A DNA stretch of 63,986 nt, the filler included, from Dimargaris cristalligena (lineage: Eukaryota), in assembly GCA_003614675.1 (NCBI GenBank). It is 3 parts of 3 records of this genome, joined end to end, with 100 filler letters (N's around TTAATTAATTAA, not from the genome) between each part and the next. Parts side by side here need not be neighbours in the genome. Positions count along the whole stretch, not along the records: positions 1 to 22,739 come from ML002626.1; 2 more parts are not named here. One strand, 5' to 3'. The translations under genes were made by a program, and so were the position numbers. Under the pieces are notes generated by a model. That model worked only from the letters and a program-made list of their open reading frames with translations, did not search any database and was not told the DNA's origin. Of the stretch, positions 1 through 50,460 are shown one piece after another. The first letter of the stretch is position 1; each line of letters starts with the position of its first letter.

Positions 1-57
1 GTGCAAAAAATAGATAAAAATAAAAGTAGGTAAAAAATGTGGTAAGTTCACCACACC

Positions 58-216
58 CATAATTGCAATTGTCATCTGCACATTCACATAGGTAAAAAAC
101 CCTATGGCTATAATCAGTGCAGTAAAGAATTCACATGTAAAGATGCACTAAATTCACATCAATTGAGAGCCAAAGGCTGTGGGTCAGGTGCAAATTGCCC
201 CCCTTCAGACAATTAA
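58..216 (+). pseudogene. Relic of a C2H2/C2HC zinc-finger gene (3' end)
   Basis: The frame from 58 reads HNCNCHLHIHIGKKPYGYNQCSKEFTCKDALNSHQLRAKGCG...*. This is a mutated version of the consensus RH.RIHTGEKPY.C..CGK.FTRKDAL..H....GC. The first Cys of finger 2 is now Tyr. Confidence 0.75.
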
Positions 217-335
217 CCACGCCTGCCAATATCCCTAGGCTAAACTGGCTGAAATGAGCCCAACTACTTCCCAATATATGTATTTTATGAAATATAACCA
301 CCCCTCCTTTATGGTGGGTCTACTATCTATTTTTT

Positions 336-483
336 ATATATGGGAGAGGTTCAACCGAGCTGTATAATAAAAAATCCATTGGATGAAGCAAATATTACTG
401 GTTAAAAATAAATCTCCCATACATTATCCCATACAGTTATCATTTAAAACCTTATACAGCTGGGCCAAATTTCACCCATATAT
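336..483. mobile_element. MITE, copy 1 (148 bp, imperfect 32-bp TIRs, TA-rich ends)
   Basis: The left end atatatgggagaggttcaaccgagctgtataa (336-367) matches the reverse complement of the right end, atatatgggtgaaatttggcccagctgtataa (452-483). Homologous copies occur at 10371 and 47111. Confidence 0.8.
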
Positions 484-484
484 T

Positions 485-1078
485 TATCACCTGGGTTAAC
501 AACTCTTAGTCTATCAAGAGTCCCGAGGATAGGCTTCTAACAGTAGGTGGGGCTTAGGCTTGGCTAAGTAGGCTGCTAGCATTAGGTATAGGTACAGGAG
601 TAACTAATAAAGTCTATAGTGGGTATATAGATGGGATGTGTAGTAAGTATACTTACTAGTCATTATGGGAGGGGTAAGTGTATATAGGGTTTATTAGGGG
701 TAAAGCAGGGGGTAAGAATAGGCTAAGGAATCTAACTGGTCCTAATGGGGCCCAGTTATATATACACGGGGATAACTCCAGAGGGAGGTCCCAGGGGAAG
801 GATACTACTAAGACTAATGTATAGGTAGATAGGCCAATTGGATAGCTATTAGTATCTGGAAAATGCCAATGGTAACCAGAAGAGTCTTTGGATCAGTACT
901 TAAGTGATTAGTATAAAGAGGCAGAGTCTTGAAGGGGACAGGTTATATAATATAGGATGTTCCTATAGTACTAGGGGTGACTATGGGAAGGTTAATATGA
1001 TGCTATAAGGCCTAGTTGGGATAGATGATTGCTATATTTTTTTTAAGCCAGATTAAAAGGGCCGATAGAGATATTCAT
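485..1078 (-). mobile_element. Degenerate LTR (solo-LTR-like), copy A
   Basis: The reverse complement aligns by eye with 21899-22491 and 45700-46091. It is CpG-depleted. The far boundary is uncertain. Confidence 0.7.
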
Positions 1079-1600
1079 AGTATCTAAATAGGATAAAGTT
1101 GAATAGTGAAGGTGGAAACCTTCAATACTACCTATCTTCCTTCATCAGATGGAAACACCCTTTCTTACTCAACGTGATGTGGGAACACTATTATTGTGAG
1201 AATATTTAGGATATAAATTAATGAGTTAGATAGAGGTGTTCGGAATGGGAAGTGTCATCAGTAGCGTCTGTCATACTAGCAAGAGGGCTGTTCAAGGTGG
1301 CAAGCCTTTGTTTGCTGAGTGCCGGGGTGTGTGCCGCCATTAACTAACCAGGCTTTTCCCATGTAAAGAAAAAGACGTGCCTGCCCACGGCAGTACACCT
1401 ATCAGCACTCTATAGAATTGTCGATTTAATACTTCAAAAGTACACTTTAGCTGTCATTTATATATTAGATCCATTAATAGAAGGGTAAAATACTATACCA
1501 GATAAAAGTACAGTTGAATGGTAGATCAGGTTCACTAGGAGGCGGGGATAAGAAAGTCTGAATAAGTAAGACAAATCAAACCTACCCGAGTGTTCCGTGG

Positions 1601-2980: not shown

Positions 2981-4136
2981 AATGGTGTTAATAGCGAGTA
3001 TAAGCAAGCATCGGTTGTAATGGGTTTATTGATAACTGTAGCAGGAAGGAAATTAGGTAGGAATAATGAGGGTATGGAATTACACCGCCGGATAGGAGTA
3101 ACAGTCACCTTAGGGCCTGCGTTAGGGCAAGTCAGTTGTTTCTTTTATATCGGAGCATTTGAGGGCCTCACTTAGGCACAACTCAGAGTAGTAAACGTAT
3201 GACCGGCAACCTTTGGTACCCCTGTAGAGGCGTCTCCGGGTGTATTGTCTAAGGGACGAGTCTCCCCCATTTAGTGCTGTGGCCGGAACCCCAGTTGTAT
3301 GGGCATCCTGGCCATGACTGGGTCTGTCCGGTACTGCGGCATTAACAAAGACAAGCTTAATGGTGAGCCAAGGAGGTGTGGTCCTAGGGCAGGTGTAATG
3401 ATTGGGAGAAGGGTAATAGTTAGGAAACACTGAGGAATCGGGGGCAGGCTTAAATAAATCCCTCTATTCCATTTTATCAGCCTTGGAAATGGGTGGAGCA
3501 GATAGTAGCTCTGGTGACGACAGCCTTTGCCAAACCAAAAAGCCACCAACAAGGTGCAGGTGGTTACTACATCGTATTGGCATTCCAGAGAGCCACCTGA
3601 AACGTTCCTCATGGTGGATTAATAATTCAACAGGTCCTGTTGACTCATGCTCTTGGTATTGTGAAGGGGAGGGCTTTTCTGTGAATTGGCTTGAGTTGAA
3701 TAATAATGACCTATATGGCTGTTGACCAAGCTGTAGAATCCGATTACATACCCCGCCTGTCCCGCAAAGCGTACACATTTATTACCGCACTCCTGAATGT
3801 GATTGGCTACCCCAAATGAAATAAATTAGGGGGGAGTGGGGTGTGGTCTCCTATATGGTGGCACTGTTGCGAGGCCGCACTTTTAATCAAGCGATTATTG
3901 TAGTGCTTTGAAGTGCTTGTAGGATTCCTCCCGTAACATTCACCTACACTCATTCTGTAAATCGGTGTACGTGACTTGTTGGGCATTTCGCCGTTTAATG
4001 AATATACAACATGATTACGAATGGCTGAGTCAAAGTGTGATATTACTAGTGCGCTTTGGATTAACAGGCCGCCAAAGTTGTGTGGGCAAAACCCCGCAAT
4101 ACGGTTACTATAGGCCTCACTATGGTATGCTTAGAA

Positions 4137-9694: not shown

Positions 9695-10370
9695 GGTGGG
9701 TTTGCATTCTAGGGTGGCAAGGAAGTGGGCCTGGAGCGAGGCTACGCTAAGGATATATGCGACAGAATAATCTACCAACAGAGCAATTCTGCTGGTCACG
9801 ACCAAATCAAAACAGCACGAGGAACCGTGGGCTAGTCGGGCTAGGCCGCTTTAAGACGGGGTTAGGGTAGAGAGGGATAGCTGGGAGGCAATGGGCTGGA
9901 TGGCGATGAGCTGGATATTTCGGGAATGCAACAGAAAGATGGTCAGTGAAAGGGAATGGTATGGTATGGTATGGAGCAAGTTAGAGTGAAGGGCCTGAAA
10001 GGTGGAGAATGAAGAAAGGAAGAGCCAATGGCGGAGTTGAGGCTGAACCGATAAAGATGGCCGAAGAAAGAGAGACAGAGTGGGTAGAGAGTGCCCCACC
10101 AAAAAGGTCACCCGTTGGTTTGAAACGGCCACTGTGGTGGTTGTTTTTCCTCGCCTTGGTAATTGGTGAAAAATATTAAGGCAAGGTTCCCCTCTCCTTT
10201 CTATGAGCAGCTGACCTTCCGGGTGCCAACCCCCCGCGACCAGCACTGTGACCTTCGGCCATTGAAGCGACCGGTATACCTTCCGCCTCGCTGCCCACCC
10301 CGGGTGGGCTATTTCCCTCTGCACCTTGCCTTACACTATGATTTTAATTGCTCATTCGCCTCATACATTC

Positions 10371-10516
10371 TATATGGGAGAGGTTCAACCAGGCTGTATA
10401 ACGAAAAATCCGTTGGATAAGGCGAATGCAACTGGTTAAATATGAATATCCCGCCTATCTTTCCGTACATGTATTCTTCAAAACCCTAAACTGCTGCACT
10501 GAATTTCACCCATATG
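10371..10516. mobile_element. MITE, copy 2 (least mutated), upstream of SNF1
   Basis: tatatgggagaggttcaacc...gaatttcacccatatg is colinear with 336-483. It retains CpG sites that the other copies have lost. Confidence 0.8.
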
Positions 10517-10916: not shown

Positions 10917-11693
10917 CTAGGCCACTTTAGCATCCCGTAACAGAATTGATATCCGGCGACCCCGCGGGACTCGGTGACCTTGAAACATGTTATGCTCACC
11001 GTCGGCATAGGGCACTTCGTGGGTAAACCGGTAGCGCAGATCACCGCGCTGGATATACAGACATTTGGGGGGGAGGTAAGCATTGACGTAACACTCGGGC
11101 TGCTCCTGATGGCAGAAGCGCATGACGGTAGGGGATAGGAGGCATATCCCCATGACAAAGCCCCCCGAAAAATCCACATTATCCACGTGGGCCAGGATGG
11201 CTCCCGAGGCGTGCAGGTCCAGAATATGGGCCGGTAACCACGGGGTTTCCGCCGGCAACAGGTCCCAGGCGCGCTGCAGGATGGGGGCCACCACTTGGTT
11301 GTCCGGTCCGTTGGGGGACGCGGGGTCGACTTGGGCGAGACCCGCGGGTGTCCAATCACTAATGGAACACTCGCGGTACTTGTTGATAACGGCGTCAAAA
11401 TGGCCCTCGTAGTAGGCCCCGGGGGCATACCGGCTCAGCTTCCGGTGGGCGAGGCGGGCCAGCTGATTATGTTCGTCATTGCTAAGGAAATCGGGCAACA
11501 CCACCAGATCGTCAGGCGAGTAGTGGGCGCTCTGGAACGACGGGGAGGGCTCGAAGTACCGCTTGAGAATCTCGGGCGTGTTGGTTAGCTGTAAAGGAGC
11601 TCGGGTCGATTGGGCACAGCTCATCCAGCGTCCCGGGGTTAGGCGTGGGGAATGGAGAACCCGCTGGCTCAGTCGGAAAGGCCGGACCAGCAT
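10917..11693 (-). CDS. ALKBH7: AlkB-family 2OG-Fe(II) dioxygenase, ALKBH7-like, probably mitochondrial
   Basis: Motifs YYEGHFDAVINKYRE, HILDL...G.I.AHVD (HxD), RYRFTHEV and RGRRISILLR. The Arg-rich N-terminus resembles a presequence. Confidence 0.88.
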   Translation of the reverse strand: MLVRPFRLSQRVLHSPRLTPGRWMSCAQSTRAPLQLTNTPEILKRYFEPSPSFQSAHYSPDDLVVLPDFLSNDEHNQLARLAHRKLSRYAPGAYYEGHFDAVINKYRECSISDWTPAGLAQVDPASPNGPDNQVVAPILQRAWDLLPAETPWLPAHILDLHASGAILAHVDNVDFSGGFVMGICLLSPTVMRFCHQEQPECYVNAYLPPKCLYIQRGDLRYRFTHEVPYADGEHNMFQGHRVPRGRRISILLRDAKVA

Positions 11694-14600
11694 GTCAAGG
11701 GAATGGGGTGGTTCGCTACAGGAAAATAAGGTTTATAGAAAAAGGAATCGCATTCTGTGTCCCTACATCCGACAGCGCAGGCCCGTCTCATAGCATCAAG
11801 GGAGGAGAGGAGGGTTTGGTCAAAATTCAGAATATATCCCCAAGCCCACTCTTGTGTAGTGTAGGTAGACAGCGGCTCTGTCCACCGTCGCCTTACTCCT
11901 ACGGAGCCGCAGCTTCCGGATTATTCCGGACCCTTCCCTGCCCAACAGCCGGGCCGCACCATTCCGCTAGCTACAACCGTCAGCCAACTCCAATATTTTT
12001 CCTATATTATCGAAAGAGCTAAATTACAGCATGACTAGTCGACGAACAATGATGAGAATCTCGGGCAAATCTCAGTTAAACGCCGCTTTGAGCGAATCGG
12101 ATATATTCTTGGGTAGGGGAATTGCCCCCCCTGTGAATCCCGTGCCGTTCCAACAAGCAGACTAATAACGGCAGCGGCAGCTAAGTTGATCCCTTGCATT
12201 GGTTAGCCAACGTAGACTGAGGGTGTATCTTCAATACAAACGCTGTATATAATACTGGTCGTCATTGAATGCCCTTACTGTCTATAGATTAGGAATAGCG
12301 GTATTCTAAAATAAGACCGGCCGACTATCTGGCATGATTCACCGTGTCGACGTAGAGTCGACTATACTGATTTACCGATGGAGGAACAAATTACATGTTC
12401 CTCTAATTTTAACGCTTATTATCCGCTACTACGCGGCCAATACCACTTAGTCGCATTGCTTTCCGCATTCGGCAGCAATGGGTACAGGTGAGGTATTACC
12501 GCCTTTTAGATTTTATCACCATCCCACTGTTACAAACTGGGCAATACAAACAGTAGACGTGGCTTGAAAAGGCCCAGCCAGATGTTTCCTTCTACAATAG
12601 CTTTCACACAGTTCATTAACCAGTATATTGGATCATCGCTATTCAAGATGACTCCAATTATAATAAGCATAGTACGAATACGTCATTTAAAATGTATATT
12701 TTCAAGGGAACGGTTGGGTCACTTGGGTGTACCCAACGGCATCTCTGCCACTTAAGCTAGCATTTCATAAGTACCTTGCGGTTTCATATTGGTCTACCAT
12801 CGCGCGGCACCACCAAGATCCTCTTCCGATTCACGGCACTATTTAAATATAGAGGTAAAGTCATCAGGGTGGATTGTCAAAAAGGTCGGTCGCAGAGCTT
12901 CCTGCTGTTGTCATACCGAAATTTAGCTCTGAGCAATCGACCTGCTTTACTGTCCGACGCTTAACCTTAGTCCGGTCTACACTAGCCTTGGCACCCATTC
13001 CCGTATCAACCAACCCTTGTGGATCGCGAGTACACTGTGGAGCACCGAAGTTTTTAATGAAATCGGCGTCCATCAAATGGATTGAATAACTGCCTTACAT
13101 TCTGGAATAAGTTAATAGACATACTTAGAAAAAAGGGAGGGGTGTGATTTATCTAACCTCCGAATTATGTGAAGCTGATGTTACTGCTTGTGGTCGTTTT
13201 CGAAAATTACTGCTGGGTATTTCCGTGTCAAAGAAGCTAATTTGAACACCATGGCAGTTATGTCTTGTGTATTTAGTGATGGTACATGTATCAGTGTGCT
13301 GGTATAATCCGGGATATTTTCTTATAAGTACGCACGAATGCTGTTGTATCCTGTTTTAAACGGACTGGTGTTTTGGATAGACTATATGGAAGAACAGTTG
13401 GGGGCTGCAAAAGTAGCTGTGTTGCTTTGTAGGAGGACACCCTGATTAAATTGGTTAAGATGGGAATCCATGGCTGTGCAGTACAAAATGCGTTGTTGTA
13501 GTAAATAGATGCGGTATCTCGGCGGATCAAATTAAAAATATCGCTTTGCCCTTTTTCATGGCCCACCTATGCAACTGCAACAGATGTTCTCGTTGTAAGA
13601 CCAGTTAGATTTAGGTAATATTGGTTGATACATATCTGTCACTAGCATATCCATATTTTTAATAATAGAAAGGGGAAGATTAGCTTCATAACGGCTTTAT
13701 AGATTGCCCTGGGTACCGGTTGAACTACACAGTCGTACCCCCCGGTCGCTGCAGATGCTCCACTTGGGCGTTAATCACTCAGTATTGAGTGATCCTGAAC
13801 TTAAATCCGCTTGACAACTGACTTACTTTATTCCCCAAGGGCAATTCCTACCTGATTTGCTAAACACGAATCAATACATTTGCGAAGTAGGGGGAATGCG
13901 AGCAGGCTCTCAGTGAATACGTATTTTCTCGAAAACATTTTTCCGTTCGAAATGATACCCCCCTGCCTATTGCTATTATCTTAGCCGCACCAAGGGGAAT
14001 AGGGCGAAGTAAGGCCATAATCCACCCATATTTATCGGAGGGCGGTCACTGGGGTGTGTACTCTATGCAAGGTAATGAATAGTAGCCTGGTCCAATGCAA
14101 GATATAAAGCTACCTTACGTCAGTGATTCTATAGCGGGGCGTTAGGTAAGCCAGTAATATGCAGTAACCGGCGGTACCACCGGGATTGTTTGATTCATTG
14201 GTGATTGACGATACCTAACAATTAGAGGGAAACCGCGATGGCCCCTTGGCCGCTATCCCGCGATTATTTTTAGCGAAAGTCTCTGTTGTTATTTCCAATC
14301 ATTGTGGTTAGGTCTACATATGTAACTATCTTTAATCGTTCCTGAATGGGCGAGGGGGACCGACAATTACGAAATAGGCCAATGGTAGGGCCCTGGTACC
14401 TAGAGGGGGGGGGCACCCCACGGAGTGCTGAGTGGATGGTGGGAGGAGAGAATCCCACAGGCAGGTGTCTGGAGGAAGGGAGGGAGGGCTAAAGCTAGCT
14501 ATGAGAAACGGGTGAACATTTAGTCGGCCAGTCCAGGCGGTTCTAATTATAGCTCCGACGGGAATGGAGGGGATGGCTACTGGCGAGTGGGTGGTGATGA

Positions 14601-19627: not shown

Positions 19628-21322
19628 TTACTTTTCGACCTGATGGGCCTTCCTATGGCGGGCCTTGGGGCCCCAGTTCTTCTCGGGGTTCTCCTGGTAC
19701 CGAACCAGGTTAATGCGACGCGATTCGGCTTTGGCCTCGGGGTGCCGCGTGAAATTGGCTTCCAGGGTGGGCTTTTTGCTCAGGATACGAACGGCGGGGG
19801 ATTCCTCGCCGTACTTGGACAGGGCCACGGGGTGCTTCTTGGCCCAACAGCGCATAATGTCCCACATGACCTCGGCGGGCGCGTTCGTCTTGATGGACCC
19901 GGGCTGGGTGTGGGAGCCGGACACCTTGAAGCCAGCGTGGAGGAGGGCCGAGCAAAGGTCGGCTAGCGGAGGGGTAGTGCAGTGGATAGCCCCACTGAGA
20001 TTCGCCAACGAGTAAAAAAACGGGGAGGTGTGGAGTTCCTCCGAGATGACCTTGACCATGCCCATCATGCGGGCGTGGGTACCAAATGCGGTCTTGTTCT
20101 TCTCGATTAATTGGTACATCCGCTGGGCGAACTCGGGGTCGTGGATGGGGCTGAGCCAGGCGGGACCCCCTAGTTGGTATCGATGGCCGCAGAACTCACA
20201 GTTGCGGTCCACTGCCGGTCCCGAGCTAACGTGGAAGGTGGTGTTGGTGCCCTTGGTCCGGGCCTGGCCGAACGTATCGGTGTGGAAGGTAAAGCAGGCC
20301 GGGCAGTTGTACACCACGCCGGTGTGGCACAGAGTTTTCTTAACCTGGGCGGGACCCGTGTACACCCGGACAAACACGCGGATATAGAAATCAATGCTGC
20401 ACGAGATCATGGGGACGATGTACCGCCGGTAACGGGCGGCCGAAGTTTGCAGGGCGTGGAGAAGCAGCCGCAGGGCCATCTCGTGGCAGTACCCCGATTT
20501 CACCGGCGTGCCTCCGTATTTGGCGAAACAAACTTCCGGGTAGTTACTGCCAGCGAGGACCGCCAGATCGGTACAGGTGACGCAAAGGAGGCCCCCGTCA
20601 ATAACCGCCTGCACGGCCCCGTCAATGAATTGGGCCGCCGAGCCGTACGGGTCCAGATCCACCACGTGGAACTGCTTCAAGGGGTTGCTCCGGCTCTGGT
20701 ACATGACGGCACACGCGTCGCCTAGATTGGGCCGTACAATCCCCGAAGCCGTGTCAACGTCGGCGTCGGCGTCGGCGCGGGTCAAAAGGCCATTGTAGAC
20801 TAGGTTACGGCGGATCGACTTGACCGCATCGGGTTCCAAGTCGTTGGCCACAATACGCTTAACGTGCGGGATTTCGAGGGCGTAGCGGACCGACCGGAGT
20901 CCCGTGGCGGACAGGGCCTCGAGAATGGTGAACTGTTTGGGGGCTACAAACGGAGGGGGCAGGGAAGCCACTACCTGATTTTCCCCGTCCTTCTCGGCCT
21001 TGAGTTGGGCCGAAGCAGCCGGATTATCAGGTTTCGTAGCGGCCGCTTGTCGCTCGGCTCTAAGGCGGGTCTTCCGTTCGGCCCGGGCTTTCTGTTCCTC
21101 AAAGTAAATTTCGCTCCAGGTGCGAATAGCCGCAATGGACATGTCGCGGTTAAACTGCTGGACCGGATTGTAGAACACTTCGTTAGTATCGGGAAACAAA
21201 ATGGTCGCCTGGCCTTCGGTAATGAGGCGGTAGGTCTGCCCGTCGTACTCGGTCGTGGTGGGCTGGGGGGTGGTGGCCTCAGTGGCAACAGCCACCGGTG
21301 CAGATGTCTGGGGGTCAGTCAT
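19628..21322 (-). CDS. TRM1: tRNA (guanine-26 N2,N2)-dimethyltransferase
   Basis: Motifs VFYNPVQQFNRDMSI, ILEALSATGLRSVRY, VDLDPYGS, GGLLCVTCTD, IDFYIRVFV and RYQENPEKNWGPK. Confidence 0.97.
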   Translation of the reverse strand: MTDPQTSAPVAVATEATTPQPTTTEYDGQTYRLITEGQATILFPDTNEVFYNPVQQFNRDMSIAAIRTWSEIYFEEQKARAERKTRLRAERQAAATKPDNPAASAQLKAEKDGENQVVASLPPPFVAPKQFTILEALSATGLRSVRYALEIPHVKRIVANDLEPDAVKSIRRNLVYNGLLTRADADADVDTASGIVRPNLGDACAVMYQSRSNPLKQFHVVDLDPYGSAAQFIDGAVQAVIDGGLLCVTCTDLAVLAGSNYPEVCFAKYGGTPVKSGYCHEMALRLLLHALQTSAARYRRYIVPMISCSIDFYIRVFVRVYTGPAQVKKTLCHTGVVYNCPACFTFHTDTFGQARTKGTNTTFHVSSGPAVDRNCEFCGHRYQLGGPAWLSPIHDPEFAQRMYQLIEKNKTAFGTHARMMGMVKVISEELHTSPFFYSLANLSGAIHCTTPPLADLCSALLHAGFKVSGSHTQPGSIKTNAPAEVMWDIMRCWAKKHPVALSKYGEESPAVRILSKKPTLEANFTRHPEAKAESRRINLVRYQENPEKNWGPKARHRKAHQVEK

Positions 21323-21627: not shown

Positions 21628-21636
21628 GTCACGTGA
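21628..21636. promoter_or_regulatory. GTCACGTGA E-box upstream of TRM1
   Basis: Exact motif about 305 nt upstream of the TRM1 ATG (21322, minus strand). Confidence 0.45.
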
Positions 21637-21898
21637 TTTTAATGAAAGGTCTTCAATATTGGTCCTCCTCAATTGTATGTCCATCCATAAGCAGATATAT
21701 GTTTTGGCCAATGACAACACTCAGTTACCTGCACATGTTGCAAATAATAATTGACTTTCTCAAATAATTGATCACTGTATGATGGGAGGGTTGGTAACAG
21801 AGGCTCTAAGAAAATAAGAGGATAAAAGTCTGTGTTATACATTTAGCCCAAATCAAGTTTAAACAAGTAGCCACAGTCTTTCAATTCCATTTTTGAAA

Positions 21899-22491
21899 AT
21901 GAATGTATTCCTATTGGCCCTTCTAATCCAGCTTAATCTGGATATGATAATGGACTAACCATATTAGGCCTTAGAGTGCCATATTTAACCTGCACATAGT
22001 CACCCCTCAGTACTATGGGATCATCCCATATCATATAACCCTTTCTGGCCTCTGGAGTCCCATTTAATCACTCCTGGGTTGATCTAACTACTCTTCTAGT
22101 TCCCAGTAGAGTCTTCCATACCCTTATACCATCCGGTTAGCATCTTATCAATCAGTAGTCATAGTAGTATTTCCCTTTAGGACCTCCCCTTTGGAGTAGT
22201 CCCCTGTGTATATATAACCAGCCCCCATTTGGACCAGTTAGATTCTTTGGCTTATTATTTCCCCCTTAGTTTACCTCAATAAACTCTATATATACATACT
22301 CCCCTATACCGACCCATAAGTGTGCCTGCTGCACATCCCTTGCATAAACCAACCAAATCCACCTTTATTTGGTTAGTACCACCCCCATACCTGATACTAG
22401 TAGCCCACTTAGCTGAGTCTAAGCCCCACCTACCATTAGAAACCTATCCTTGGGACTCTTGATGGACTAAGAGTAGTAAGCCCAGGCAACA
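21899..22491 (+). mobile_element. Degenerate LTR, copy B (may begin near 21776)
   Basis: Aligns with the reverse complement of 485-1078. It ends in ...cccaggcaACA and is CpG-depleted. Confidence 0.7.
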
Positions 22492-22574
22492 ATTCCTAAA
22501 GTACTGTTGAGATTATGGGCCAGGGTAGATACACTTAGTAACTTAATTATCATGACAATAATAAAAATATATGT

Positions 22575-22630
22575 TGTGGTGAACTTACCACATTTTTTAC
22601 TTACTTTTATTTTTAATCCATTTTTTGCGC
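22575..22630 (-). repeat. Copy of the repeat at 1-56
   Basis: The reverse complement gcgcaaaaaatggattaaaaataaaagtaagtaaaaaatgtggtaagttcaccaca matches positions 1-55. Confidence 0.8.
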
Positions 22631-22739
22631 TTATTGGAAGTACACCCCTGATGAGTGAATGAGCCCCTGTCCCTGACTAGATGGTACCCCTGCATTCACA
22701 CTGCCCCTGGCCCGACTGCACCCCTGTTCAAAGAATAGC

Positions 22740-22839
22740 NNNNNNNNNNNNNNNNNNNNNNNNNNNNNNNNNNNNNNNNNNNNTTAATTAATTAANNNNN
22801 NNNNNNNNNNNNNNNNNNNNNNNNNNNNNNNNNNNNNNN
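22740..22839. other. Assembly gap / artificial contig spacer
   Basis: 100-nt N run containing TTAATTAATTAA, which gives stops in all six frames. Confidence 0.98.
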
Positions 22840-31175: not shown

Positions 31176-32426
31176 TTACAGCTCGTTATTAAGCCACGAG
31201 GCATTGTCCTTGTCAGCGTGGAGATCCTTCCATCTCGTATCAATCATGGCGGCCTTGTTGGGCTTAAACATGCGAGTGTACCAGTTCCCCAGGACCAGGC
31301 CGAAGCGAGATTGGGTCACACCACGGTGGCGGCCAATCGACACCGTCATAAGATTGGACTTGTCGCGGTACTCCTCAAGTCGCAGAGGGGCCATCCGAGT
31401 GAGATCACGGCGCTGGTGACAGACGTCATGTTCAATCAAGTGTTTGAGATTGCGGGCGGTGAGGCGAGCCTGGGCCGCCGCATGAACCGCCAACTTAAAG
31501 CAGGGGTGGTCATTGCAGTCGCCAATGGCGAAAATATGAGGGAAGCGGGGGTCGCGCAGCTGAAGAGTAAGACGAACCCGGACGTGGTTGGTGTTGGGGT
31601 CCACCAGCTGAGTGGGGCTGTCGGACAAGGAGTGCATGTAACGGGTATCTACACTAATACCGGTACAGCAAAACTGCAGATCCGATTCGATGGCCCGGCC
31701 ACTGGCGGTCCGCAAAATACGGGTGCCGCTGCCGGGGTCGAGACCCTTCTCGTCGGGAATAATCACCTTTTCGTTCAGAATCACCTGAACACCCAGGGAT
31801 TCGAGTTCTTCCCGCGCGCGGTCACGGAACGATTCCTTGTAGTCGTCGAGGAACAGCTTGCTCTGGTTGTGAACCAGAATGACCCGCTTTTCGGGGTACT
31901 CAGTGGCAATTTCACCAGCCAGTTCCACCCCAACTGGGCCACCGCCAATGATCAGCACTCGGGCGGACTCGCGGATACTCTGGTAGTACAGCAGCGAAGT
32001 TTCAATGCCCTGGAGGGCGGTGAATGAGTTCATCTTGGCGGGGTCGGGGTAGGTGGACCCGGTAGCGAGGACCAAGTAGTCGAAGGGCAGGAAGTTCACG
32101 GGCGACTCGGCGTTGGCGTATTCAATGTGGAAGGGGAACACGCGGGTGAGAACACCCTGGACGACCGTATGGCCGTAGCGACTGTTGTTCTTGAACAGAT
32201 TGTCATACGGGATCCAGAGCTTCTTGGCCACGTCCTTCTGCACGACGGCTCGGAGGGCTCCGACGGTGTGGAAATAGGCCTCCCGCTTCTCCAGAATGGT
32301 AATACGGACGGGGAGGTGCGAAATCATACTCTCTAGTTCGCAGGCGAGAGTTACGCCGGCCTTGGAGCCGCCAACCACGAGAACGTTGTAGACCTTGGTG
32401 GTGGATTGGGGGATGTTCGTCGACAT
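31176..32426 (-). CDS. AMID/AIFM2(FSP1)-like FAD/NAD(P)H oxidoreductase, paralog 1
   Basis: Motifs VLVVGGSKAG, FDYLVLATGS, IIGGGPVGVELAGEI, HIFAIGDC and VSIGRHRGV. Confidence 0.9.
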   Translation of the reverse strand: MSTNIPQSTTKVYNVLVVGGSKAGVTLACELESMISHLPVRITILEKREAYFHTVGALRAVVQKDVAKKLWIPYDNLFKNNSRYGHTVVQGVLTRVFPFHIEYANAESPVNFLPFDYLVLATGSTYPDPAKMNSFTALQGIETSLLYYQSIRESARVLIIGGGPVGVELAGEIATEYPEKRVILVHNQSKLFLDDYKESFRDRAREELESLGVQVILNEKVIIPDEKGLDPGSGTRILRTASGRAIESDLQFCCTGISVDTRYMHSLSDSPTQLVDPNTNHVRVRLTLQLRDPRFPHIFAIGDCNDHPCFKLAVHAAAQARLTARNLKHLIEHDVCHQRRDLTRMAPLRLEEYRDKSNLMTVSIGRHRGVTQSRFGLVLGNWYTRMFKPNKAAMIDTRWKDLHADKDNASWLNNEL

Positions 32427-35400
32427 GATGGCAATCGATTAATGATAAAGGGAGAGGGAAGAAAAGATTTGACGAACCGACGGGGGGGAATGTTCAGTGT
32501 ATATACGATTTAGTTGGAATCCCAATAATAGATTGGACTGCACCGCGAATAAGATGATCGCCGGTGGACGTGGACAGATGCGGTATAAGGGCAGGGGGCA
32601 CAATTGGACAGCCGGGGGAGAAATACTCAAGAAAAAAACAACAGCGGAGAGGGCCACCGAATAAACAGGAAAATAGAATAACATGCGTAGGGGGCGCTGG
32701 CGGTGGCCGGGAGCCCAGTCTTTATACGGGCCTTAGGCCATACGCAGACGGCCCAATAGCCCCCTCACTAGATTTGCCGCCAGGCACGCAGGCGAAAACC
32801 TGGCCAATGTGTGCCGGCAGCCCAATCGGGTCTCACACGCACTCATTTACACTGGTAAATATGCGAATCTCTAATTCAGTTGATGTTCACTTCTGAGTTT
32901 TCCTGACTGGGGAGGGGGAGGGGATACCAAAACAGAGACTGGCCCAAGCCGGAACAGCCAGCTTCCTCGGCCCGGTGGATTTACATGTGGGATGCTGGCG
33001 GCCATACTCGTCGGACGATTGGCGCCAGTCGGCGGGAATTCGGGTGTATTCCCACCCTTCACTCCACCGCACCACTTCTCGCCAATCGTTGGAGCTCCAT
33101 CCGACCATTGCGCTCGTTTCAGTCTACCCCCATGTTCAGTCAAAACAATTCTATGAGTAATATTAATGATTGGCCTTCGATCGCACACCCGGCCCAGGCA
33201 GTCCAGTCTCCGACGGTAACCGGCTAAAGAACCCCCCTCCCCCACTCGTTTAACTCTCTATAACCAACGGAGAGGCCCCAGTGTTCATCGGGCTTCAAGC
33301 GGGCAAAATAAAAATCTTGAGGCCCCCTTCGCAGGATTGCCCTCAGCTGGCCACGGAAGTAACCCCCACCCGCTTTCGTTTACGCGGAAGCCAAGCGAGC
33401 CATTTTCCGTGCCGTATTGTGATGCAGGTTCGGGCTTTCGCCGCTGTGGTAAAAATTAAAATATGAAGTTGGTCCAGGTGCAGCTCGAGTCCCAGTGGTG
33501 TTGTATACCCCATCCGCCCGTTGGTATTTCTCGAAATAGCCCCCGCATTGCCGCGGCTGTTTCATACATGTGCATGAACTGTTGGACAGAGTGAAAAAAA
33601 TAGATATTATAATAATATAATAGAAGTGGCAAAGCTACGATGCTACTTAGGGGCTGTTCGTCCCAATCAGGACCCTCAACCTCACCATCTCGAGCCAACC
33701 CAGTTTCGACTAGCTCCTGGACGGTTTCGCATGCGCTTCCTAAGCGATTAATGGATAAGTCTGGGTTTGCCCCGCTTCTAATTTTAGGGAGGATTCCCCA
33801 GATCAATTCGACCTATCTGATCAACTGATTAGAGAAACTATATGAGAGAGAAAGAATGTGAGCACCCCCATTTTATCACCACACGAGGGCGGAAACACCC
33901 CCAATTCCGAACGATACGAAGCAACTGATTCGTCGTTGCTCGTCGATAAGTACCCCCCTCTTTCCCACCATCACAACATCAGTAGCCAGTTAACGCTAGG
34001 GTCGCTTCTCGGCCACTCGCCTGTCCGTAGAAGATTCGACCAGGGTGTAGTCAGGGACCACCGAGTTAGTAGGACCACTGGCCCTTCACACCAATCTGAT
34101 TTCTCTTCGCCATACGGCACTAGTCCAGAGAGCCCTCAATAAACCGCACAATGTGCCAGTCGCCGAGGCCCACCCGATACCCCGACCAAAGGTGATCCCC
34201 GCCTACCCAATATCCGCTCCACCCCAATTGGATTTATCTGATTTATTCATCAAAACCCTCCCCGTTTAAATGGGCAAATGACCAGTGGGTTGGGCAAAGT
34301 CTCCGCACCAATGATCACCGGGCCGATGACCTTTCGCGGTCGATTGGCCGACTTTCCTGTCCCCATCACCAGTGATTGCAGCGGCTTGGAGCTTTCCCGC
34401 CTGATAAGAACAATGGTCCTGGAATTGGATAGCGCATATGTTTATTGATCTTTTATTACCGTGTCGGTTGAAGCGGCCGGCTAATACCAACCGCTAATAG
34501 GCCCCAGCCAAGCCATTTCGGCAATCCAATCGCTGCAAATTTATCTATAATAATACTTCCACAGTGGCCAACTAACCACTCGACTGCTTCTCGGTGGGCC
34601 TTGGGTGTACAATTGGTTCATTGCCAACCTCCCTCGTTTCAGTCACTGCAAATCGCCTGAATAGCCCTCACACCAGGTGGGTCTGAAACAGGTTAGTACG
34701 GCTGACATGGGGGCTGCTCCCCCATTAAAAGACATTCGAGTGAACTCGCAAAGGTAAACTCGGCTACTGCACCGGCATGATACCGCATTTCGCTGAAGTC
34801 TGTCGGATCGGTGTCTCAAACAGGGCGGAACGAACACGTTGGTTTGGGTGGCTGCCGAATACCGATCCTTCCGCAGATTCCACTGACCGCGGATGCACCT
34901 TTAACGGACTTTTCTTTTCGTCATCCGATTATACTACGGACTCCATTGCTGCCCTGCCCACTAATATCGACTTTTAGCCAGGTTGACTTTCTTTGTGCAG
35001 CAAATGGAGGGGGGTGTACATGGGTATGTATGGGTGTGTGTTTCCTGCACCTATTTGGACCTTTACTCCCCTCCCTCCTTCCCTAGTTTATTTTGGTATA
35101 TAAATCTAAATAGTTGTTGTGCAGTTGGCCTTCTTTATTAGACAGCCATTGAATGGCCAATTCCCAGCCACTGTACCACTCAACGAAACCAATCATCTCA
35201 AAAGCCGCACTGGCAGTGAATGGTGAGCATGGGCATCCATGAATCCAATAGTGCTAATCTCGCCGCCATATCTTCACCTACATCAGTCCCATTTTAGTAC
35301 CCTACTATGCGCTAAACTGTGTCAAATCACATTCAGTGGGAGAAACAGGCTAAATCTATCCAAAAATAGCAACAGGGTGGGATAAACTGGTTTTTATGTC

Positions 35401-35916: not shown

Positions 35917-37218
35917 CTAGGAAGCGGGTATGGTTGTTGGTGCGGGAAAGGGGATGCCCATTTGTCGCCATTTCTTGGCGACTTGGAGGTCTCTGCCCTT
36001 CAGTACCCGAGCGGCCCAGTCCCCGAAAATAAGGCCACGCGGGAACAGGCAAATCCCTTTTTGGGGGCCCAAGGCCAGCACCAAATAGCTCTCGGAGTCC
36101 TCAAACGTGCGGAGTTTAGGCAGTACGGGGCGCTGGCCCGGGTTGGGGTTGCGCAACTCCGCCCCAATGCACAGTTTGAGATTGCGGAGCAGTATGCGCA
36201 CCTGGTGGCTCGCCTTGCAGGCATTTTTGACACACTTGATATCGTTGACATCGCCTACGGCGAAGATGTGAGGGTAGTTGTCGTCCTTGATCTGGAGGGT
36301 GGGTAGCACCCGAATCCGCTCGTCCGGCCCAATGATACCGAGGCGGGTGTCCGTTTCGAGGGACTGCAGGAACTCGGTGTAGACCCGGGTGCCGGTGGCC
36401 TGGATGATCTTATCCGCCTCGATGGGGATGCCCTGGCGGGTGGTGATCAGATACGGCGAATTGGCCGAGACGGACATCTCCAGGGAAAGGGAGTTGGCCT
36501 CGTCTTGCAGATCAATGGAGTCCCCCAGAATCACATTTACCCCCAGCTCTTCCACGCGCTGGGTCACGCGGCGACGGAATTTAAGCGACAGGGGCGAGCT
36601 GAGCAGCTGCTCACCACGGTGGACAATGGTGATGTTCTTGTCGGGGCTCGCGTGCTTGATTTCACCGGCGATCTCGACACCGAGGGGGCCCCCACCGATG
36701 ATAAGAATATTCTCGGCGTAAGCCATGTCGTCCGCGAACTGGCCATTGACCTTGGTGGCCAAGGCCCGACTAGGCAGTAGGGGGGAGAAGGGGTGGGCAC
36801 TGGATGAGCCCGTGGCCAGAACCAGATAGTCATATTCGACAATGAACGGGCTGTCCTGCAGCAGGAGGTGCCCATCTAACACTTGGGTAACCTCGCCCTG
36901 CAGGAATTGGTGATTGGGATAGCTGTCATCCCGGGTGGGTTTAGCGCCATGAAAGACATTAGTGAAGGGGATCCAAAGGAGGTCGGCAAATGACCTGTCC
37001 ATGATGCCACGCACGGCCCCCACCTTGTGGTAGTGGTGGTCGTAGCGATCGATGAGGGTAACGTGTACCTGGTCCGGAGAGAAGCTGCGCACAATGCCCT
37101 GGGCGGTCTCCACCCCTGCCGTCGAGCCCCCGACCACTGCTAGTCGGATAGGGAGCCGGGTCGGGGCAGTGATGCTCTTATGCCAGTCACCGGGGAAAAA
37201 TTCTTGTACACCAGGCAT
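35917..37218 (-). CDS. AMID/AIFM2(FSP1)-like FAD/NAD(P)H oxidoreductase, paralog 2
   Basis: ATG at 37218. Motifs LAVVGGSTAG, YDYLVLATGS, IIGGGPLGVEIAGEI, HIFAVGDV and LALGPQKG. Confidence 0.9.
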   Translation of the reverse strand: MPGVQEFFPGDWHKSITAPTRLPIRLAVVGGSTAGVETAQGIVRSFSPDQVHVTLIDRYDHHYHKVGAVRGIMDRSFADLLWIPFTNVFHGAKPTRDDSYPNHQFLQGEVTQVLDGHLLLQDSPFIVEYDYLVLATGSSSAHPFSPLLPSRALATKVNGQFADDMAYAENILIIGGGPLGVEIAGEIKHASPDKNITIVHRGEQLLSSPLSLKFRRRVTQRVEELGVNVILGDSIDLQDEANSLSLEMSVSANSPYLITTRQGIPIEADKIIQATGTRVYTEFLQSLETDTRLGIIGPDERIRVLPTLQIKDDNYPHIFAVGDVNDIKCVKNACKASHQVRILLRNLKLCIGAELRNPNPGQRPVLPKLRTFEDSESYLVLALGPQKGICLFPRGLIFGDWAARVLKGRDLQVAKKWRQMGIPFPAPTTIPAS

Positions 37219-39974
37219 GCTGAAGGGGGAGAGATTATGGAAGGGAGGGGGGGGCAAGTTAGGTGGACGGGAAAACAATGATCTGAAAGTGGAGTACGCG
37301 GACAGGTATACGTGTATAGGACAGATGTCGGAAGTGATGAGAGGGGGGGGGCACGAGAACAGGAGAGTTCGGCTATTAACGGGCCAACAGGCGGGGGCAA
37401 TCGGGGAGGTTTAAATACTGAGCCGCCATGGAGATAGCGAGTCTAGCGGCCATCCCCTCTGCACCAAGGAAGAGGGACCCCACAACGCGGCTGTCCCTAC
37501 AGTACATAGTGGCCAGAAAAACAGTGAGCCACAAGGGAAAACCCGAGAGGCACTGGACACTGATTGCCGCTGAGTCAGGCTCCAGTGTTTCCAGGAAGCA
37601 ATGGGTCGGCGGAGTGTGACTCGAAGAAAGAGGGTGTGGCATGGTCACACATTCCTCAGTCCGAATAGTTCTGGAGGTGGTGGGGAACTCGGCCATGAGT
37701 GGCCCGACAAGGCGGTCCATTTAGAACTGAGACACCCCCAAAACACCACTCCCCATTCCACACACTTGGCTATTAATTGGCCATGGTGATCAGGTTTGCA
37801 AAGTCCAATATTTGGCCACAACGGGCCTGGGAACAGTATAGAAAACAGGTATTCCTTCACTGCGCTGGTCCGCTGGTATCATTTAAGTTGTTATTATCCT
37901 ACACTGGTTGGCGCCGTATTTAACCAGCGGTGTCTATTATGATCTCCCAGAATCAACCGCCAATCACGCATAAATTTCCCCCAGATTGGCCCCTCTTTCC
38001 ACTGGTTAATTTAGTCCGACTTTCCCAGACAAGAGCCCCCCTCCCACATTCCCAAATAGGCTGGGTTTCCATAGCTGGTATGTTTTATTACCCCCTTTTC
38101 CCTTTTGAAACGGAACCGATCTCCCCGCCTCTGCCAGGCTATTCCTGATCCACTTTGGCCTATACCAATACGGAGCCGGCCGTCGTGATCGGTGGGTGCG
38201 AACGATGGTTAACAATCATTTTGAGATGCAAGCACCCCCCGAATACTACAATTGGAATACCGGCCAATCGGCACTCTATATAGAAAGAAAAGTACACTCT
38301 GCCCGTCAGATGTGATGGACTTGAAGATTCCTGGGCGGGGGGGGGTAGTCGAGTGACCTTCATATAGCCCGCTACACATACCTTGACCTGCCTAGAAACA
38401 CTCCAAAGACCGTGGGCTTCCATTTGGGGTGGGCAACGCTCTAACCCCACCAACAATCAGCCAATAACTGGGCTTTTCATATCGCACCATGCATTCCCTC
38501 TAACCCTAATTGGTTGTTGAGTGGTTGTTACTAAAGGGACCCCCTCCATCCACGTGAGTTGGCCAGGGCTGACGACGGCTCCTGTGAAACTAACTAATAG
38601 GGCGATCCTTGAGAATGGAGTGTGTGTAATAGCCTCCGGCTAATTGGTGGCTCTCCCCAAGGACTCGAGGTTTCATTAGCGGCCCCCATGGCTGCTTGGA
38701 GCGTTGACCAAGTAAAAACCCTGGGCACCGGTGGTTGAGCGGTTTCGTTGGGCCTACTTGACCGACCAATGCGCCTTTAAAGTCAATTTATTAAGTCTAC
38801 AGTGCCGCCTACGGATTCTTCACTCTCCCCTTATCCATACAGGGTTGGCCAACGGCGGTCCACCAGAGAAGGGGTCGCCAAGGATGTGTGGTGGTGGGGG
38901 ACCCCTGGGCCATTCCCTGCAATTAAGAGACCAAAGGCACCGATATTCTGGAAGTATTCTCCTAATATGGCAAGCAGCTCCATAGTCCCCACTTCGGTGA
39001 TGCACGTCATTGTTGGTCGTGCAGATTAATTTAGGCTCATCCCAATACTGCCAGGTATACAGACAGCGACAATCGAAATAGAGTCGCCGTGATTCAATCT
39101 TTCCTTCGATTCTGTTGACACCTCCACTCCACCCTTCTTGCTTTCAATGACTTTAGAATAGTGTAATCATGGGTGGATCGCAGGTCGATTAACGCACACT
39201 AGTTTCACTCGAATTACATTTTTAATCACCCATACATCCTCTCTATCCATCATCCCCCAAGTCCTACCCGTATCTAAGGCTGGCGTAAACCCGCACCTAT
39301 GCTGCTAAAGGGGCGGGCCCTACTCCGGTGAATTAGTGGACGGGAATAGGAAAGTACCGACAACAAGGAGGGGGGGCTGGTTCCTTCAGCTAGGGTTATT
39401 GGCCAATTAAGAATACGTAGCCGGAGTGAATTAGTCAAATGTAAATTCAATCTAAAAAAGGAAAGGGCATGTTAGTACTTGGGTCCAGAAATGGGCGACC
39501 GGGAATCCTGAAAAGCAATCCGGCCCGTTTAGGGAGACCCGCTGTCAATGAAAGGAAAATAAGGTCGTGAGTAAGCACTGGCCAACCTGTGAAATAATCA
39601 GCCATAAATGCTGTGTCACTCGGTTAGTCCATCTCTTCTTAGCCTGCTTATTAGTCCCCCCGAGGGAGATCCACTATGGTCGTGAATATGATTAAGCTGA
39701 AAGGCATTTCTGGGGATGACCAGCACACTCAGCGGCTTCCCCCATTAGGGTTACCGCAACGGAAAGTCCTCCATGACCCGGCTTTATTAGGAAAGTACAT
39801 AGAAATAAAGCCACGCATTGACCAGGGAATAATACCGAGCTAAGAAACGCAATTGGCAAAGATCCAATGGGTAGTAGTAGTGGAGGTGTATACATCACTT
39901 TGCAACAATACGAATAGAAGGGTGTGAAACGATTACCGCCAAATTTAAGGTCAGGAGTGGGGGGATTAGCCCCG

Positions 39975-45530: not shown

Positions 45531-45630
45531 NNNNNNNNNNNNNNNNNNNNNNNNNNNNNNNNNNNNNNNNNNNNTTAATTAATTAANNNNNNNNNNNNNN
45601 NNNNNNNNNNNNNNNNNNNNNNNNNNNNNN
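45531..45630. other. Assembly gap / artificial contig spacer
   Basis: 100-nt N run containing TTAATTAATTAA. Confidence 0.98.
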
Positions 45631-45699
45631 ACCTTTCCCTTTTATTATCTATCTTTTCAAATAAAGTTCAGTTTTCAAGGATTTGATTTCAGTTCATTA

Positions 45700-46900
45700 C
45701 ACCATCAGAGTCTTCTAGATACCAACAGTTGTCTGGCTGGCCTATTTACCTATATCTTAGTCTTAGTAGTATCCTTCCCCTGGGACCTCCCTCTGGAGTT
45801 ATCCCTGCATATATATAACCAGGCCCCATTGGGACTAGTTAGATTCCTTAGCATATTCTTACCCCCTGGTTTACCCCCTAATAAACCCTATATACACTCA
45901 CTCCCCCCATACTGACTAGTAAGTATACCCACTGCACATCCCTTGCCTATACCTGTACTCAAGCCTTTATTAGTTAGTACCATACCTGTACCTAATACTA
46001 GCAGCCACTTAGCCAAGCCTAAGCCCTTCCTACCATTAGAAGCCTCTCCTTAGGACTCTTAACAGATTAAGAGTGGTAAACCCAGGCAATATTAGTGGAG
46101 GACTAAATCAAATGGTCTCTCAAAGGAAAGCCTCTGTACCCCCCATCCATAAACCCACCCACACCTTACAAAGGACTGTAAGGTACTGTGGAAGGAATAT
46201 ACCTATAACTGTAAAGGACTGTGGATGACCAAGCTCTCAACCCATAAAGGACCATGGATGTGTAAGAATAAGATAATGAATTACAACAGATCACAAGAGT
46301 ATACTGATACCTCAACCAACCCCACCACAATCCAGCAGTACAAGAACTACAACAGAAACTATGTGACCTCCCAAGAAGCACTAACCCTAAGACTTACTAC
46401 TTCTACAAAGATTTTCTAGTGGAAAAATTCTGTACCTTTGCATACCCACAGAACATCTCCCCTAACCTCCCACAAGTCAGGGGCTCCCATTAGGACACCC
46501 TCAATCAAATTAACAAGGACTACTAGTAAGCCCACATTAACTGATAACTCCATAGTCTATACTGACTCATCAATCCCACTCTAGGGCCCAACTACTGACT
46601 ACCCCAGGCTGTAGCCAACAGCAATGCACCCATCTCCAGCCACATCCACTAAGGTACCTACATAGCAGCACTCAGCCACCCCCCCTACCCCATTGGACTC
46701 ATAGGACTGAGCCCACCTTAGTTAAAGGAGGGAGGAGATAGCCCCACCATCCTAATTATCCTGATACACTAAGGAATCCCCAGTGGTCATTAAACCTACC
46801 CCTGTATAAGTCAATTTGACCAATACTTATAGTCTCCCCATATATAAAGAGTGGGACTGAGCTACACCTCCCCATATTGAAATCAGCAATATTGAAGAAT
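45700..46900 (+). mobile_element. Degenerate LTR retrotransposon 5' end: LTR copy C (to 46091), PBS-like site, eroded internal region
   Basis: 45700-46091 matches the reverse complement of about 485-875. It is followed at once by ttagtggag, close to TGGTGGAG. The downstream C/A-rich sequence has no CpG by eye. The right boundary is approximate. Confidence 0.6.
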
Positions 46901-47110
46901 ATGTTCCTATGTGTTCTTTATCCTATCCTGTTTCACCCAATTATATTAGTTTATTCTACTATTAAGAGATTATTTATGTTAGATACTTATGTTTCATCCC
47001 ATCAAAATTACAGTTTAATAAAACTAACCACCTAGAGGTACCTACTGTCCTCTAGCTGCTTTCTTCCCTTACTTCCAGTTTTATTTTCTTTATGTCCTTA
47101 GTATTCCAAT

Positions 47111-47235
47111 ATGTATAATGAAAAATCCATTAGATGGGGCCAATATTGCTTGTTAAAAGGTTGTCTCCCACATATTCCCTCATATATGTATTATGTAAAA
47201 CCTTTTACAGTTGGTTTGAATTGCACCCATATGAT
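47111..47235. mobile_element. MITE, copy 3 (left TIR truncated)
   Basis: tgtataatgaaaaatccattagatg...gaattgcacccatatg is colinear with 361-483 and 10395-10516. Confidence 0.75.
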
Positions 47236-49988: not shown

Positions 49989-50460
49989 GATGGGACTTTA
50001 GACTGAAAGGGTGGATGGGGTTAAGCAGAGGGATAGTATGAGTAAGAGTGCTGTATCACGAAATGGACCAACCCGAGGCAGGGAGATAAGAATTGGGGAG
50101 GGAATGGTTATATATTAAAAGAGTAAAGAGCTTTAAAGAGTAGGGTCTGCCTGGGGAGGATTTCAGCTCAAGACAATCCATTGGGGTTAGAGTCAAACTG
50201 GTGGAAGGACTGAGCCAACTCTTGGGTAACCCGAATCGTCACCACCCAAGGCATGCCACTTCATCCTGTCCCATCGTTTGTTGCAGCCAAGCTTATTTAG
50301 ACTCGGTCTTTTTATTGCCGACTTTACCTTGCCTGCCTTATTATCGAGCGAGCTCAGCTTGAGTCGCTCTACACTGAGTATCGGTGTTCCATACCCCGCT
50401 TGAATTGACCCCGTTACATTATTTTTTAAGTTTCTTCGTTTTGTTTTGTTTAACTTGCCA

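Follow-up and report, generated by a model that had tools for sequence, protein, structure and literature searches.

Three CpG-poor repeat clusters in a Dimargaris genome: probable regional methylation decay and an additional TpA bias in one repeat family

We analyzed a 63986-base stretch of Dimargaris cristalligena DNA (hereafter, the window), made up of three scaffolds (pieces 1-22739, 22840-45530, and 45631-63986), in which an initial annotation had proposed a process resembling repeat-induced point mutation (RIP), that is, repeat-targeted C>T hypermutation at CpG and CpA. Our analysis identified three clusters of repeats that have lost nearly all of their CpG dinucleotides and that are sharply delimited from the surrounding genes. 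We consider it probable that these old clusters decayed through regional CpG methylation followed by deamination, and that one of their repeat families, referred to as Z, carries an additional and partly older TpA bias.

Three CpG-poor clusters with sharp borders

Each of the three clusters was analyzed for its remaining CpG. The first (1-1080) retains five, located at 220, 356, 524, 767, and 1063, and the next one within 1-1200 is found at 1173; the second (21640-22630) retains three (22134, 22310, and 22628), and considering the larger interval 21633-22739 adds only 22713; the third (45631-47270) retains none, the earliest CpG of this scaffold piece being located at 47274. These counts agree exactly with those made by eye in the initial annotation. 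At the background CpG observed/expected ratio (o/e) of 0.83, the same stretches are expected to contain 32.5, 29.7, and 51.4 CpG, respectively, so that the deficits have Poisson P-values of 3e-9, 6e-10, and 5e-23. Only two of the 64 1-kb windows have a CpG o/e below 0.5, namely 1-1000 (0.11) and 46001-47000 (0.0), and a 300-nt scan detected only five runs below 0.3, corresponding to the three clusters plus 3301-3700 and 35001-35300. The borders are sharp: CpG is dense until 21632 and again from 47274, and it recovers from approximately position 1241. The proposal that the loss of CpG is local to repeat clusters and spares the genes is therefore well founded. All CpG-poor repeat clusters are situated at scaffold ends, which is expected, as assemblies break in repeats.

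The two small runs outside the clusters, 3301-3700 (o/e = 0.27) and 35001-35300 (o/e = 0.26), are embedded in DNA of normal CpG content and have a TpG/CpA excess (1.28 and 1.36, respectively) with no TpA excess. They may correspond to small old insertions that decayed likewise.

The clusters are mosaics of repeat families and low-copy spacers

Self-BLAST and contig layout revealed that the three clusters combine a minimum of three repeat families (X, Y, and Z) with low-copy spacers in a mosaic (Table 1), and are not copies of a single element, as had been assumed previously. A sensitive self-BLAST (word size 7) identified no additional repeat copies within the window. Contigs from four public runs, amounting to thousands of pieces, were mapped on positions 1-2000, where the unique flank has a depth of 27-1554 in the three runs covering it. 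Family X has the highest summed contig depth in view (210734-439997 at 1-67), and a loose end at place 15 in run X4 continues like the sequence from 22629 onward. The Y_A copy of family Y has a depth of 52310-117131, its summed depth in run X1 being approximately 70 times as high as in the unique flank, and the ends of this element (ATATGGG...CCCATAT) suggest that it is similar to miniature inverted-repeat transposable elements (MITE-like). Contigs of Y also include tandem or nested forms ('goes back 119/145' joints). For the spacer at 57-337, the runs contain a second variant with 10 differences in 306 nt, represented by one contig per run, which may correspond to either an allele or another copy.

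Family Z is a repeat of ~590 nt, represented by about 90 distinct contigs at each position; those carrying an alternative letter number about 50-100 per position, and the long contig pieces are ~15-18% divergent from copy Z_A. A scan of metagenome contigs for further copies, based on a degenerate Z motif of 23 nt, found none (0 matches). The initial annotation had labeled this family as a long terminal repeat (LTR), a label that our analysis does not support. No direct-repeat pair flanking an internal gag-pol region was identified; Z is present only as single copies at scaffold ends, and the copies in direct orientation lie on different scaffolds. Since assemblies break inside repeats, the missing LTR structure is weak evidence. 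In addition, Pfam scans of all six frames, in which stops were treated as X, detected no domain in Z (487-1080 and 21640-22489) or in the adjoining DNA at 46090-47100, and the single sub-threshold hit in these scans scored 13.8 bits, where the cut-off is 27. The same scans did not support an RNase H-like 'YTDSS' string that had been noticed by eye.

Table 1. Repeat copies, spacers, flanks, and scaffold joints in the window. TG/CA and TA are o/e values; the substrate index is (CpA+TpG)/(ApC+GpT).
Feature	Position	Strand	Description
X, end segment of the most abundant visible repeat	1-56	+	scaffold start falls inside X; 94% identity to 22628-22575
Low-copy spacer, CpG-decayed	57-337	.	depth 16-2876, same order as unique flank
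Y_A, high copy	338-481	+	144 nt; both borders (338, 481) marked by loose ends of 34-66 contigs per run
Z_A	487-1078	+	84.5% identity to 46086-45713, 73% to 22486-21899; CpG 3 (o/e 0.14); TG/CA 0.74, TA 1.66, TpA/ApT 1.51, substrate index 0.79
Solo Y, in gene-rich DNA	10368-10515	+	76% identity to Y_A; CpG 5 (o/e 0.86)
CpG-free flank past the end of Z_B	21640-21898	.	CpG 0; TG/CA 1.43, TA 0.73
Z_B, most diverged Z copy	21899-22489	-	CpG 2 (o/e 0.08); TG/CA 0.97, TA 1.43, TpA/ApT 1.21, substrate index 1.06
Second X copy (22575-22628) and continuation to scaffold end	22575-22739	-	self-BLAST
Scaffold joint	22740-22839	.	linker N44-TTAATTAATTAA-N44
Scaffold joint	45531-45630	.	linker N44-TTAATTAATTAA-N44
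Z_C, cut by scaffold end	45631-46089 (homology 45713-46089)	-	CpG 0; TG/CA 0.81, TA 1.47, TpA/ApT 1.65, substrate index 0.86
CpG-free DNA of unknown family	46090-47111	.	no paralogue in window; TG/CA 1.06, TA 1.19
Y_C, inner cluster edge	47112-47232	+	76% identity to Y_A; CpG 0; TG/CA 1.42

Outside family Z, the clusters have the composition of plain CpG decay

A CpG o/e of 0-0.26 was found in each cluster segment, including the low-copy spacer 57-337 and the unrelated flanks. When pooled and symmetrized, the cluster DNA outside Z has o/e values of 0.11 for CG, 1.31 for CA/TG, and 0.93 for TA, the corresponding background values being 0.83, 0.97, and 0.98. By segment, TG/CA o/e outside Z ranges from 1.09 to 1.56 and TA o/e from 0.73 to 1.05, with 46090-47111 lying slightly outside these ranges (1.06 and 1.19). 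X has no CpG at 1-56 (TG/CA 1.41, TA 1.05) and a single one in its continuation at 22629-22739 (o/e 0.12, TG/CA 1.56, TA 0.89), and the spacer 57-337 likewise has one (o/e 0.10, TG/CA 1.38, TA 0.98). As a null model, we performed 300 simulations in which 592-nt sequences, generated under a first-order background model, evolved by fast CpG decay plus context-free, AT-biased change, with rates set for a GC content of 0.40, a CpG o/e of 0.15, and 23% divergence. These simulations gave values of 1.26 ± 0.09 for TG/CA, 0.90 ± 0.09 for TA, 0.90 ± 0.11 for TpA/ApT, and 1.38 ± 0.14 for the substrate index, and the cluster segments outside Z agree with them. As the loss of CpG extends over the low-copy spacer, it is regional, and the idea that it is repeat-targeted is not supported.

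Comparison of the three copies of Y provides a further line of evidence. Y_A has a single CpG, and all five CpG sites of the solo copy have been lost in both Y_A and Y_C, four of them having become CA in one or both copies; one site reads CG, TG, and TA across the three copies. The fact that the solo copy keeps its CpG while the cluster copies lost it suggests that decay follows location and not mere repetition. With the solo copy as reference, the C>T changes of Y show no preference for CpA (11/37 at CpA, 11/28 at CpT, and 4/36 at CpC), and the two cluster copies both have a TpA/ApT of 0.76, compared with 0.81 for the solo copy.

From this sequence composition, we infer CpG methylation of the clusters. 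Whole clusters would be, or would long have been, CpG-methylated heterochromatin, in which spontaneous deamination of 5-methylcytosine (5mC) would have converted nearly every CpG into TpG or CpA, and genes, together with the solo MITE-like copy among them, would have remained unmethylated and retained their CpG. The pattern resembles the decay of methylated transposon-rich DNA in Basidiomycota and other eukaryotes with DNMT1/UHRF1 or DNMT5, in that the loss is CpG-specific with a reciprocal gain of TpG/CpA, is regional and includes unique spacers, has sharp limits toward the genes that it spares, and leaves CpG in a copy of the same element outside the cluster (one element only, Y). It differs from such decay in that Z has also lost CpA/TpG and gained TpA, so that depletion of CpG is accompanied by the reciprocal excess only outside Z (symmetrized CA/TG in Z is 0.80, with CG at 0.07); besides, methylation is here deduced from the sequence. 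Going by relatives, the enzyme would be of the DNMT1 plus UHRF1 type: a supplementary table of PMC10538959, in which Dimargaris is not included, has entries of DNMT1 and UHRF1 for two Kickxellales, Coemansia reversa and Linderina pennispora, with DNMT5 not detected, and a 5mC entry of 'Y' for Linderina. Pfam analysis of the window, covering 12 of its 33 open reading frames (ORFs) of at least 150 amino acids and 44 of its 96 stop-to-stop ORFs of at least 110 amino acids, identified no homologue of a RID/Masc1-type cytosine methyltransferase.

Family Z carries an additional TpA bias

Classical RIP thresholds are a TpA/ApT above 0.89 and a substrate index, (CpA+TpG)/(ApC+GpT), below 1.03. The 231 background windows have values of 0.88 ± 0.18 and 1.13 ± 0.16, respectively. 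Z_A and Z_C pass both thresholds and Z_B fails, as do Y_A, Y_C, the spacer, and the flanks (TpA/ApT 0.74-0.83, substrate index 1.46-1.73). A composite RIP index above 0.3 was found in 9 of the 231 background windows, with a maximum of 0.72; the index is -0.92 in the spacer 57-337 and +0.24 at 46090-47111. Other dinucleotides of Z are also unusual (AG/CT 1.33, CC/GG 1.76, GC 0.72), and the excess of AG/CT cuts both ways, as TGG>TAG changes would raise AG.

The three-copy alignment of Z contains every difference quoted in the initial annotation (ctaacag/ctaatgg, gcccagt/gcctggt, gtccatc/gtctatc, agtggg/agtagg, gtgcag/gtgtag, actggt/actagt, and tcccga/tcctaa). Thirteen aligned sites have either both CA and TG among the copies or a CG that has survived, which is direct evidence of former CpG. 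Nonetheless, the statement that copies differ mostly by CA<->TG was too strong: such double differences account for 15/43, 13/93, and 12/68 transitions per pair, and transversions make up 17/60, 69/162, and 36/104 of all differences (28-43%). The transition:transversion ratios (Ts:Tv) are accordingly 93:69, 43:17, and 68:36 between the copies in the window (1.3-2.5), and 200:63, 202:67, 178:57, and 200:73 variable places among the contigs of the four runs (~3). In the 40 variable places listed out of 376, 10 of 18 transitions in Y and Z lie in pyrimidine-purine (Y-R) dinucleotides, which is no enrichment, as this context takes up an estimated ~46% of Z_A.

Changes in Z were polarized by majority in the three-way alignment, keeping only sites with an invariant neighbor, so that CA<->TG sites were excluded. 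In this analysis, in which each site enters the count once per lineage and changes on the long B branch cannot be polarized, C>T changes were found at 8/45 CpA, 7/123 CpT, and 3/111 CpC sites, giving an odds ratio of 4.8 (P = 0.003) for CpA against CpT and CpC combined. The excess of CpA>TpA that had been predicted is present in Z relative to the other non-CpG contexts (Fisher P = 0.028 against CpT and 0.002 against CpC), and the order of contexts is CpG >> CpA > CpT > CpC. When only the A and C lineages are considered, the counts are 4/30, 3/82, and 0/74 (odds ratio 7.8, P = 0.014); in these lineages, CpA>TpA changes number four and TpA>CpA changes three, some of which could have been produced by parallel hits. 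There are nine TG<->TA and nine CA<->TA sites, indicating no strand bias; on this lack of asymmetry, we rejected editing of cDNA by an APOBEC-like deaminase. The reasoning that TpA cannot arise without a non-CpG hit, and that hits of this kind occur in excess, therefore stands for Z, but not for Y (CpA 11/37 against CpT 11/28), X, or the spacers.

Part of the bias is already present at the sites that are invariant in all three copies, where TA outnumbers AT (25 vs. 14, P = 0.036 against the background share) and CA+TG is outnumbered by AC+GT (5 vs. 21). Either the bias at least partly predates these copies, or it is saturated. The TpA-rich invariant core, together with the unusual values of Z in AG/CT, CC/GG, and GC, would also fit an explanation without any special mutational process, in which the elements are natively CpG-poor and TpA-rich and their copies differ by ordinary neutral drift. 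Against this are the 13 Z sites with direct evidence of former CpG, the loss of all five CpG of the solo Y in both cluster copies, and the equally CpG-poor low-copy spacer and unrelated flanks with their sharp borders. A native composition is thus an already strained reading, and we regard it as very improbable.

Explanations for the bias of family Z

Our preferred explanation, regional CpG methylation and deamination, would account for Z by taking its TpA richness and CpA/TpG poverty as a property of the family that is largely older than the three visible copies, and that would since have been sustained by the usual C>T change, at a rate somewhat higher ahead of A or T than ahead of C. A RIP-type machine would not be required. 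Several observations weigh against this explanation. None of the 300 simulations reached a TpA/ApT of at least 1.5 together with a substrate index of at most 0.86, as in Z_A and Z_C, and only 2 of 300 reached the values of Z_B. The excess of C>T at CpA described above is a further objection, and methylation restricted to CpG is unable to produce TpA. In Z, just 5/56 CA/TG sites are invariant (P = 3e-4), and 0/3 CG sites, the other dinucleotide classes being invariant at 23-34% of sites each (164/525 pooled). Moreover, the intrinsic composition of Z is an assumption that lies beyond the reach of three copies. Y_A, located 6 nt from Z_A, has no TpA shift, which means that a regional process acting outside CpG fails to explain Z as well.

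A second explanation is a RIP-like C>T mutator that prefers CpA and depends on homology or length. It would act on long repeats, Z among them, in addition to CpG-methylation decay, and the short Y and the low-copy spacers would escape it. The RIP-type indices of the Z copies relative to the 231 background windows, the failure of all null simulations to match Z_A or Z_C, the CpA odds ratios, the hits on both strands (9 and 9), as expected for a process acting on double-stranded DNA, and the sparing of the adjoining Y and spacers are all consistent with such a mutator. However, this support comes from one family, three copies, and 4-8 polarized events, and majority gives no polarity for changes along the long B branch. 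CpA>TpA changes (4) are not in excess of TpA>CpA changes (3) in the A and C lineages, transversions account for 28-43% of the differences, and the invariant sites of Z are already rich in TpA. The visible parts of X (56+165 nt), which is the most abundant family, have a TG/CA of 1.41-1.56 and a TA of 0.89-1.05, with no TpA excess, and nine background windows exceed a composite index of 0.3, one of them at 0.72. A kingdom-wide k-mer screen, based on scaffolds >50 kb only, is also reported to have detected repeat-enriched signatures in Ascomycota only (PMC12543289). On balance, we consider this mutator unlikely. The initial suggestion that the lineage has its own repeat-directed mutator acting at CpR is in line with the CpA excess of Z, and is weakened by the restriction of this excess to one family, the low Ts:Tv, and the TpA-rich invariant sites. 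These results argue against a general RIP-like mutator, and a repeat-directed CpA mutator is neither refuted nor shown by this window. That Dimargaris, a zoopagomycete, has a length- or copy-dependent CpA-preferring mutator, operating via an unrelated or a DNMT1/DIM-2-like enzyme, is in our view similarly doubtful.

A third explanation would be methylation outside CpG, mainly at CpA, by a DIM-2-like or relaxed DNMT1-like enzyme directed to certain repeats (e.g., by small RNA or H3K9 methylation), with subsequent deamination producing CpA>TpA changes there only. The context order in Z and the involvement of both strands would fit this, and the supplement of PMC10538959 has an entry for Coemansia reversa in its Dim2 column, although the accession is apparently that of another species. 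Nevertheless, the absence of a TpA shift in Y_A at a distance of 6 nt implies that targeting would have to be element-precise, and we give this explanation a low probability too. Regional CpG methylation and deamination, with an additional and partly older TpA bias in Z, therefore remains the explanation that we favor.

Comparison with RIP and RIP-like systems

The RIP of Pezizomycotina (Neurospora crassa), which depends on RID and DIM-2 and causes CpA>TpA changes, partly resembles the pattern in Z, in that two of the three copies (Z_A and Z_C) pass the index thresholds and in that CpA appears to be preferred among contexts other than CpG, on both strands. It differs in the taxon, which lies outside Dikarya, and in the chief target, which in the Dimargaris clusters is CpG and not CpA. 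Moreover, Ts:Tv is only 1.3-3.2, compared with the near-exclusive C>T/G>A transitions of RIP, and the changes are not confined to repeats, as the loss of CpG extends beyond them and the TpA shift is found in one of three high-copy families.

In Basidiomycota, RIP-like hypermutation of repeats centered on CpG or TpCpG has been reported in Pucciniomycotina (Horns et al. 2012, PMC3318451) and in Rhizoctonia solani AG8 (PMC4014442), the latter paper itself raising the ambiguity between RIP and methylation followed by deamination. The Dimargaris clusters share with these cases a repeat C>T hypermutation centered on CpG and the same ambiguity, but belong to another phylum, Zoopagomycota, and show no detectable preference for TpCpG. 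Counting both strands, the 10 residual CpG are preceded by T in 5 of 20 cases, compared with 26% in the background (P = 1.0), in a small sample in which the survivors are an indirect read-out. A flank preference of the surviving CpG, with 'CCGA' at 5 of 10, was also considered and was not significant when both strands were counted.

Source organism and other genes in the window

Because the window consists of three scaffolds joined end to end, adjacency across the two joints (22740-22839 and 45531-45630) is not real. Of its 33 ORFs of at least 150 amino acids, 12 were chosen for scanning and 10 of these matched Pfam families; fungal genes in the window include those for a SNF1-type kinase, a tyrosinase, TRM1, an MFS protein, a Zn2Cys6/ERT1 protein, and IFRD. 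The TRM1 ORF (19628-21322, - strand) has 98% identity to a Dimargaris cristalligena protein, followed by Dispira (64%) and Tieghemiomyces (62%), and the sole relatives of an ORF in the third piece belong to Dispira and to two further Dimargaris species (37-39% identity). Judging by these protein matches, the source organism is a member of Dimargaritales (Kickxellomycotina, Zoopagomycota), outside Dikarya. The expectation of an early-diverging fungus was therefore correct, and the alternative of a Pezizomycotina species, raised at the same time, does not apply to a member of Kickxellomycotina.

Three further observations concern genes and duplications. An ORF at 10917-11732 (- strand), approximately 400 nt from the solo MITE-like copy, encodes a 2OG-Fe(II) oxygenase (AlkB-like) domain (PF13532, E = 1e-6, slightly below the curated cut-off). 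The segments 55333-55457 and 55871-55995 form an inverted duplication of 125 nt with 99% identity and a spacing of 413 nt, which copies the Walker-A exon and the intron start of an AAA-type ATPase gene and retains its CpG; this structure may have arisen by recent duplication, or as a chimera of assembly or amplification. Finally, two paralogous pyridine nucleotide-disulphide oxidoreductase genes are located ~4.7 kb apart at 31176-32426 (- strand) and 35917-37278 (- strand). As they have no similarity at the DNA level in self-BLAST, they are uninformative regarding a repeat-directed mutator.

Implications for DNA methylation and genome defense in zoopagomycete fungi

To our knowledge, RIP is regarded as restricted to Ascomycota. 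This agrees with the kingdom-wide screen mentioned above, which is reported to have found repeat-enriched mutation signatures solely in that phylum; its restriction to scaffolds >50 kb suggests that fragmented assemblies contributed little (PMC12543289). A search of the literature on RIP and methylation, judged by titles and the start of abstracts, identified no published work on repeats or 5mC in Dimargaris or Kickxellomycotina among the matches listed.

Early-diverging fungi have been described as almost 5mC-free (PMC13297926). The sharply bounded CpG-poor clusters found here point to a long-standing CpG methylation of transposon-rich DNA in this zoopagomycete lineage. CpG o/e, combined with the TpG/CpA excess, provides a simple sequence marker for such methylation. 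Family Z in turn offers a concrete test case for a second, CpA-directed process outside Dikarya, and a CpA-preferring mutator, if true, would represent a RIP-like genome defense outside Dikarya.

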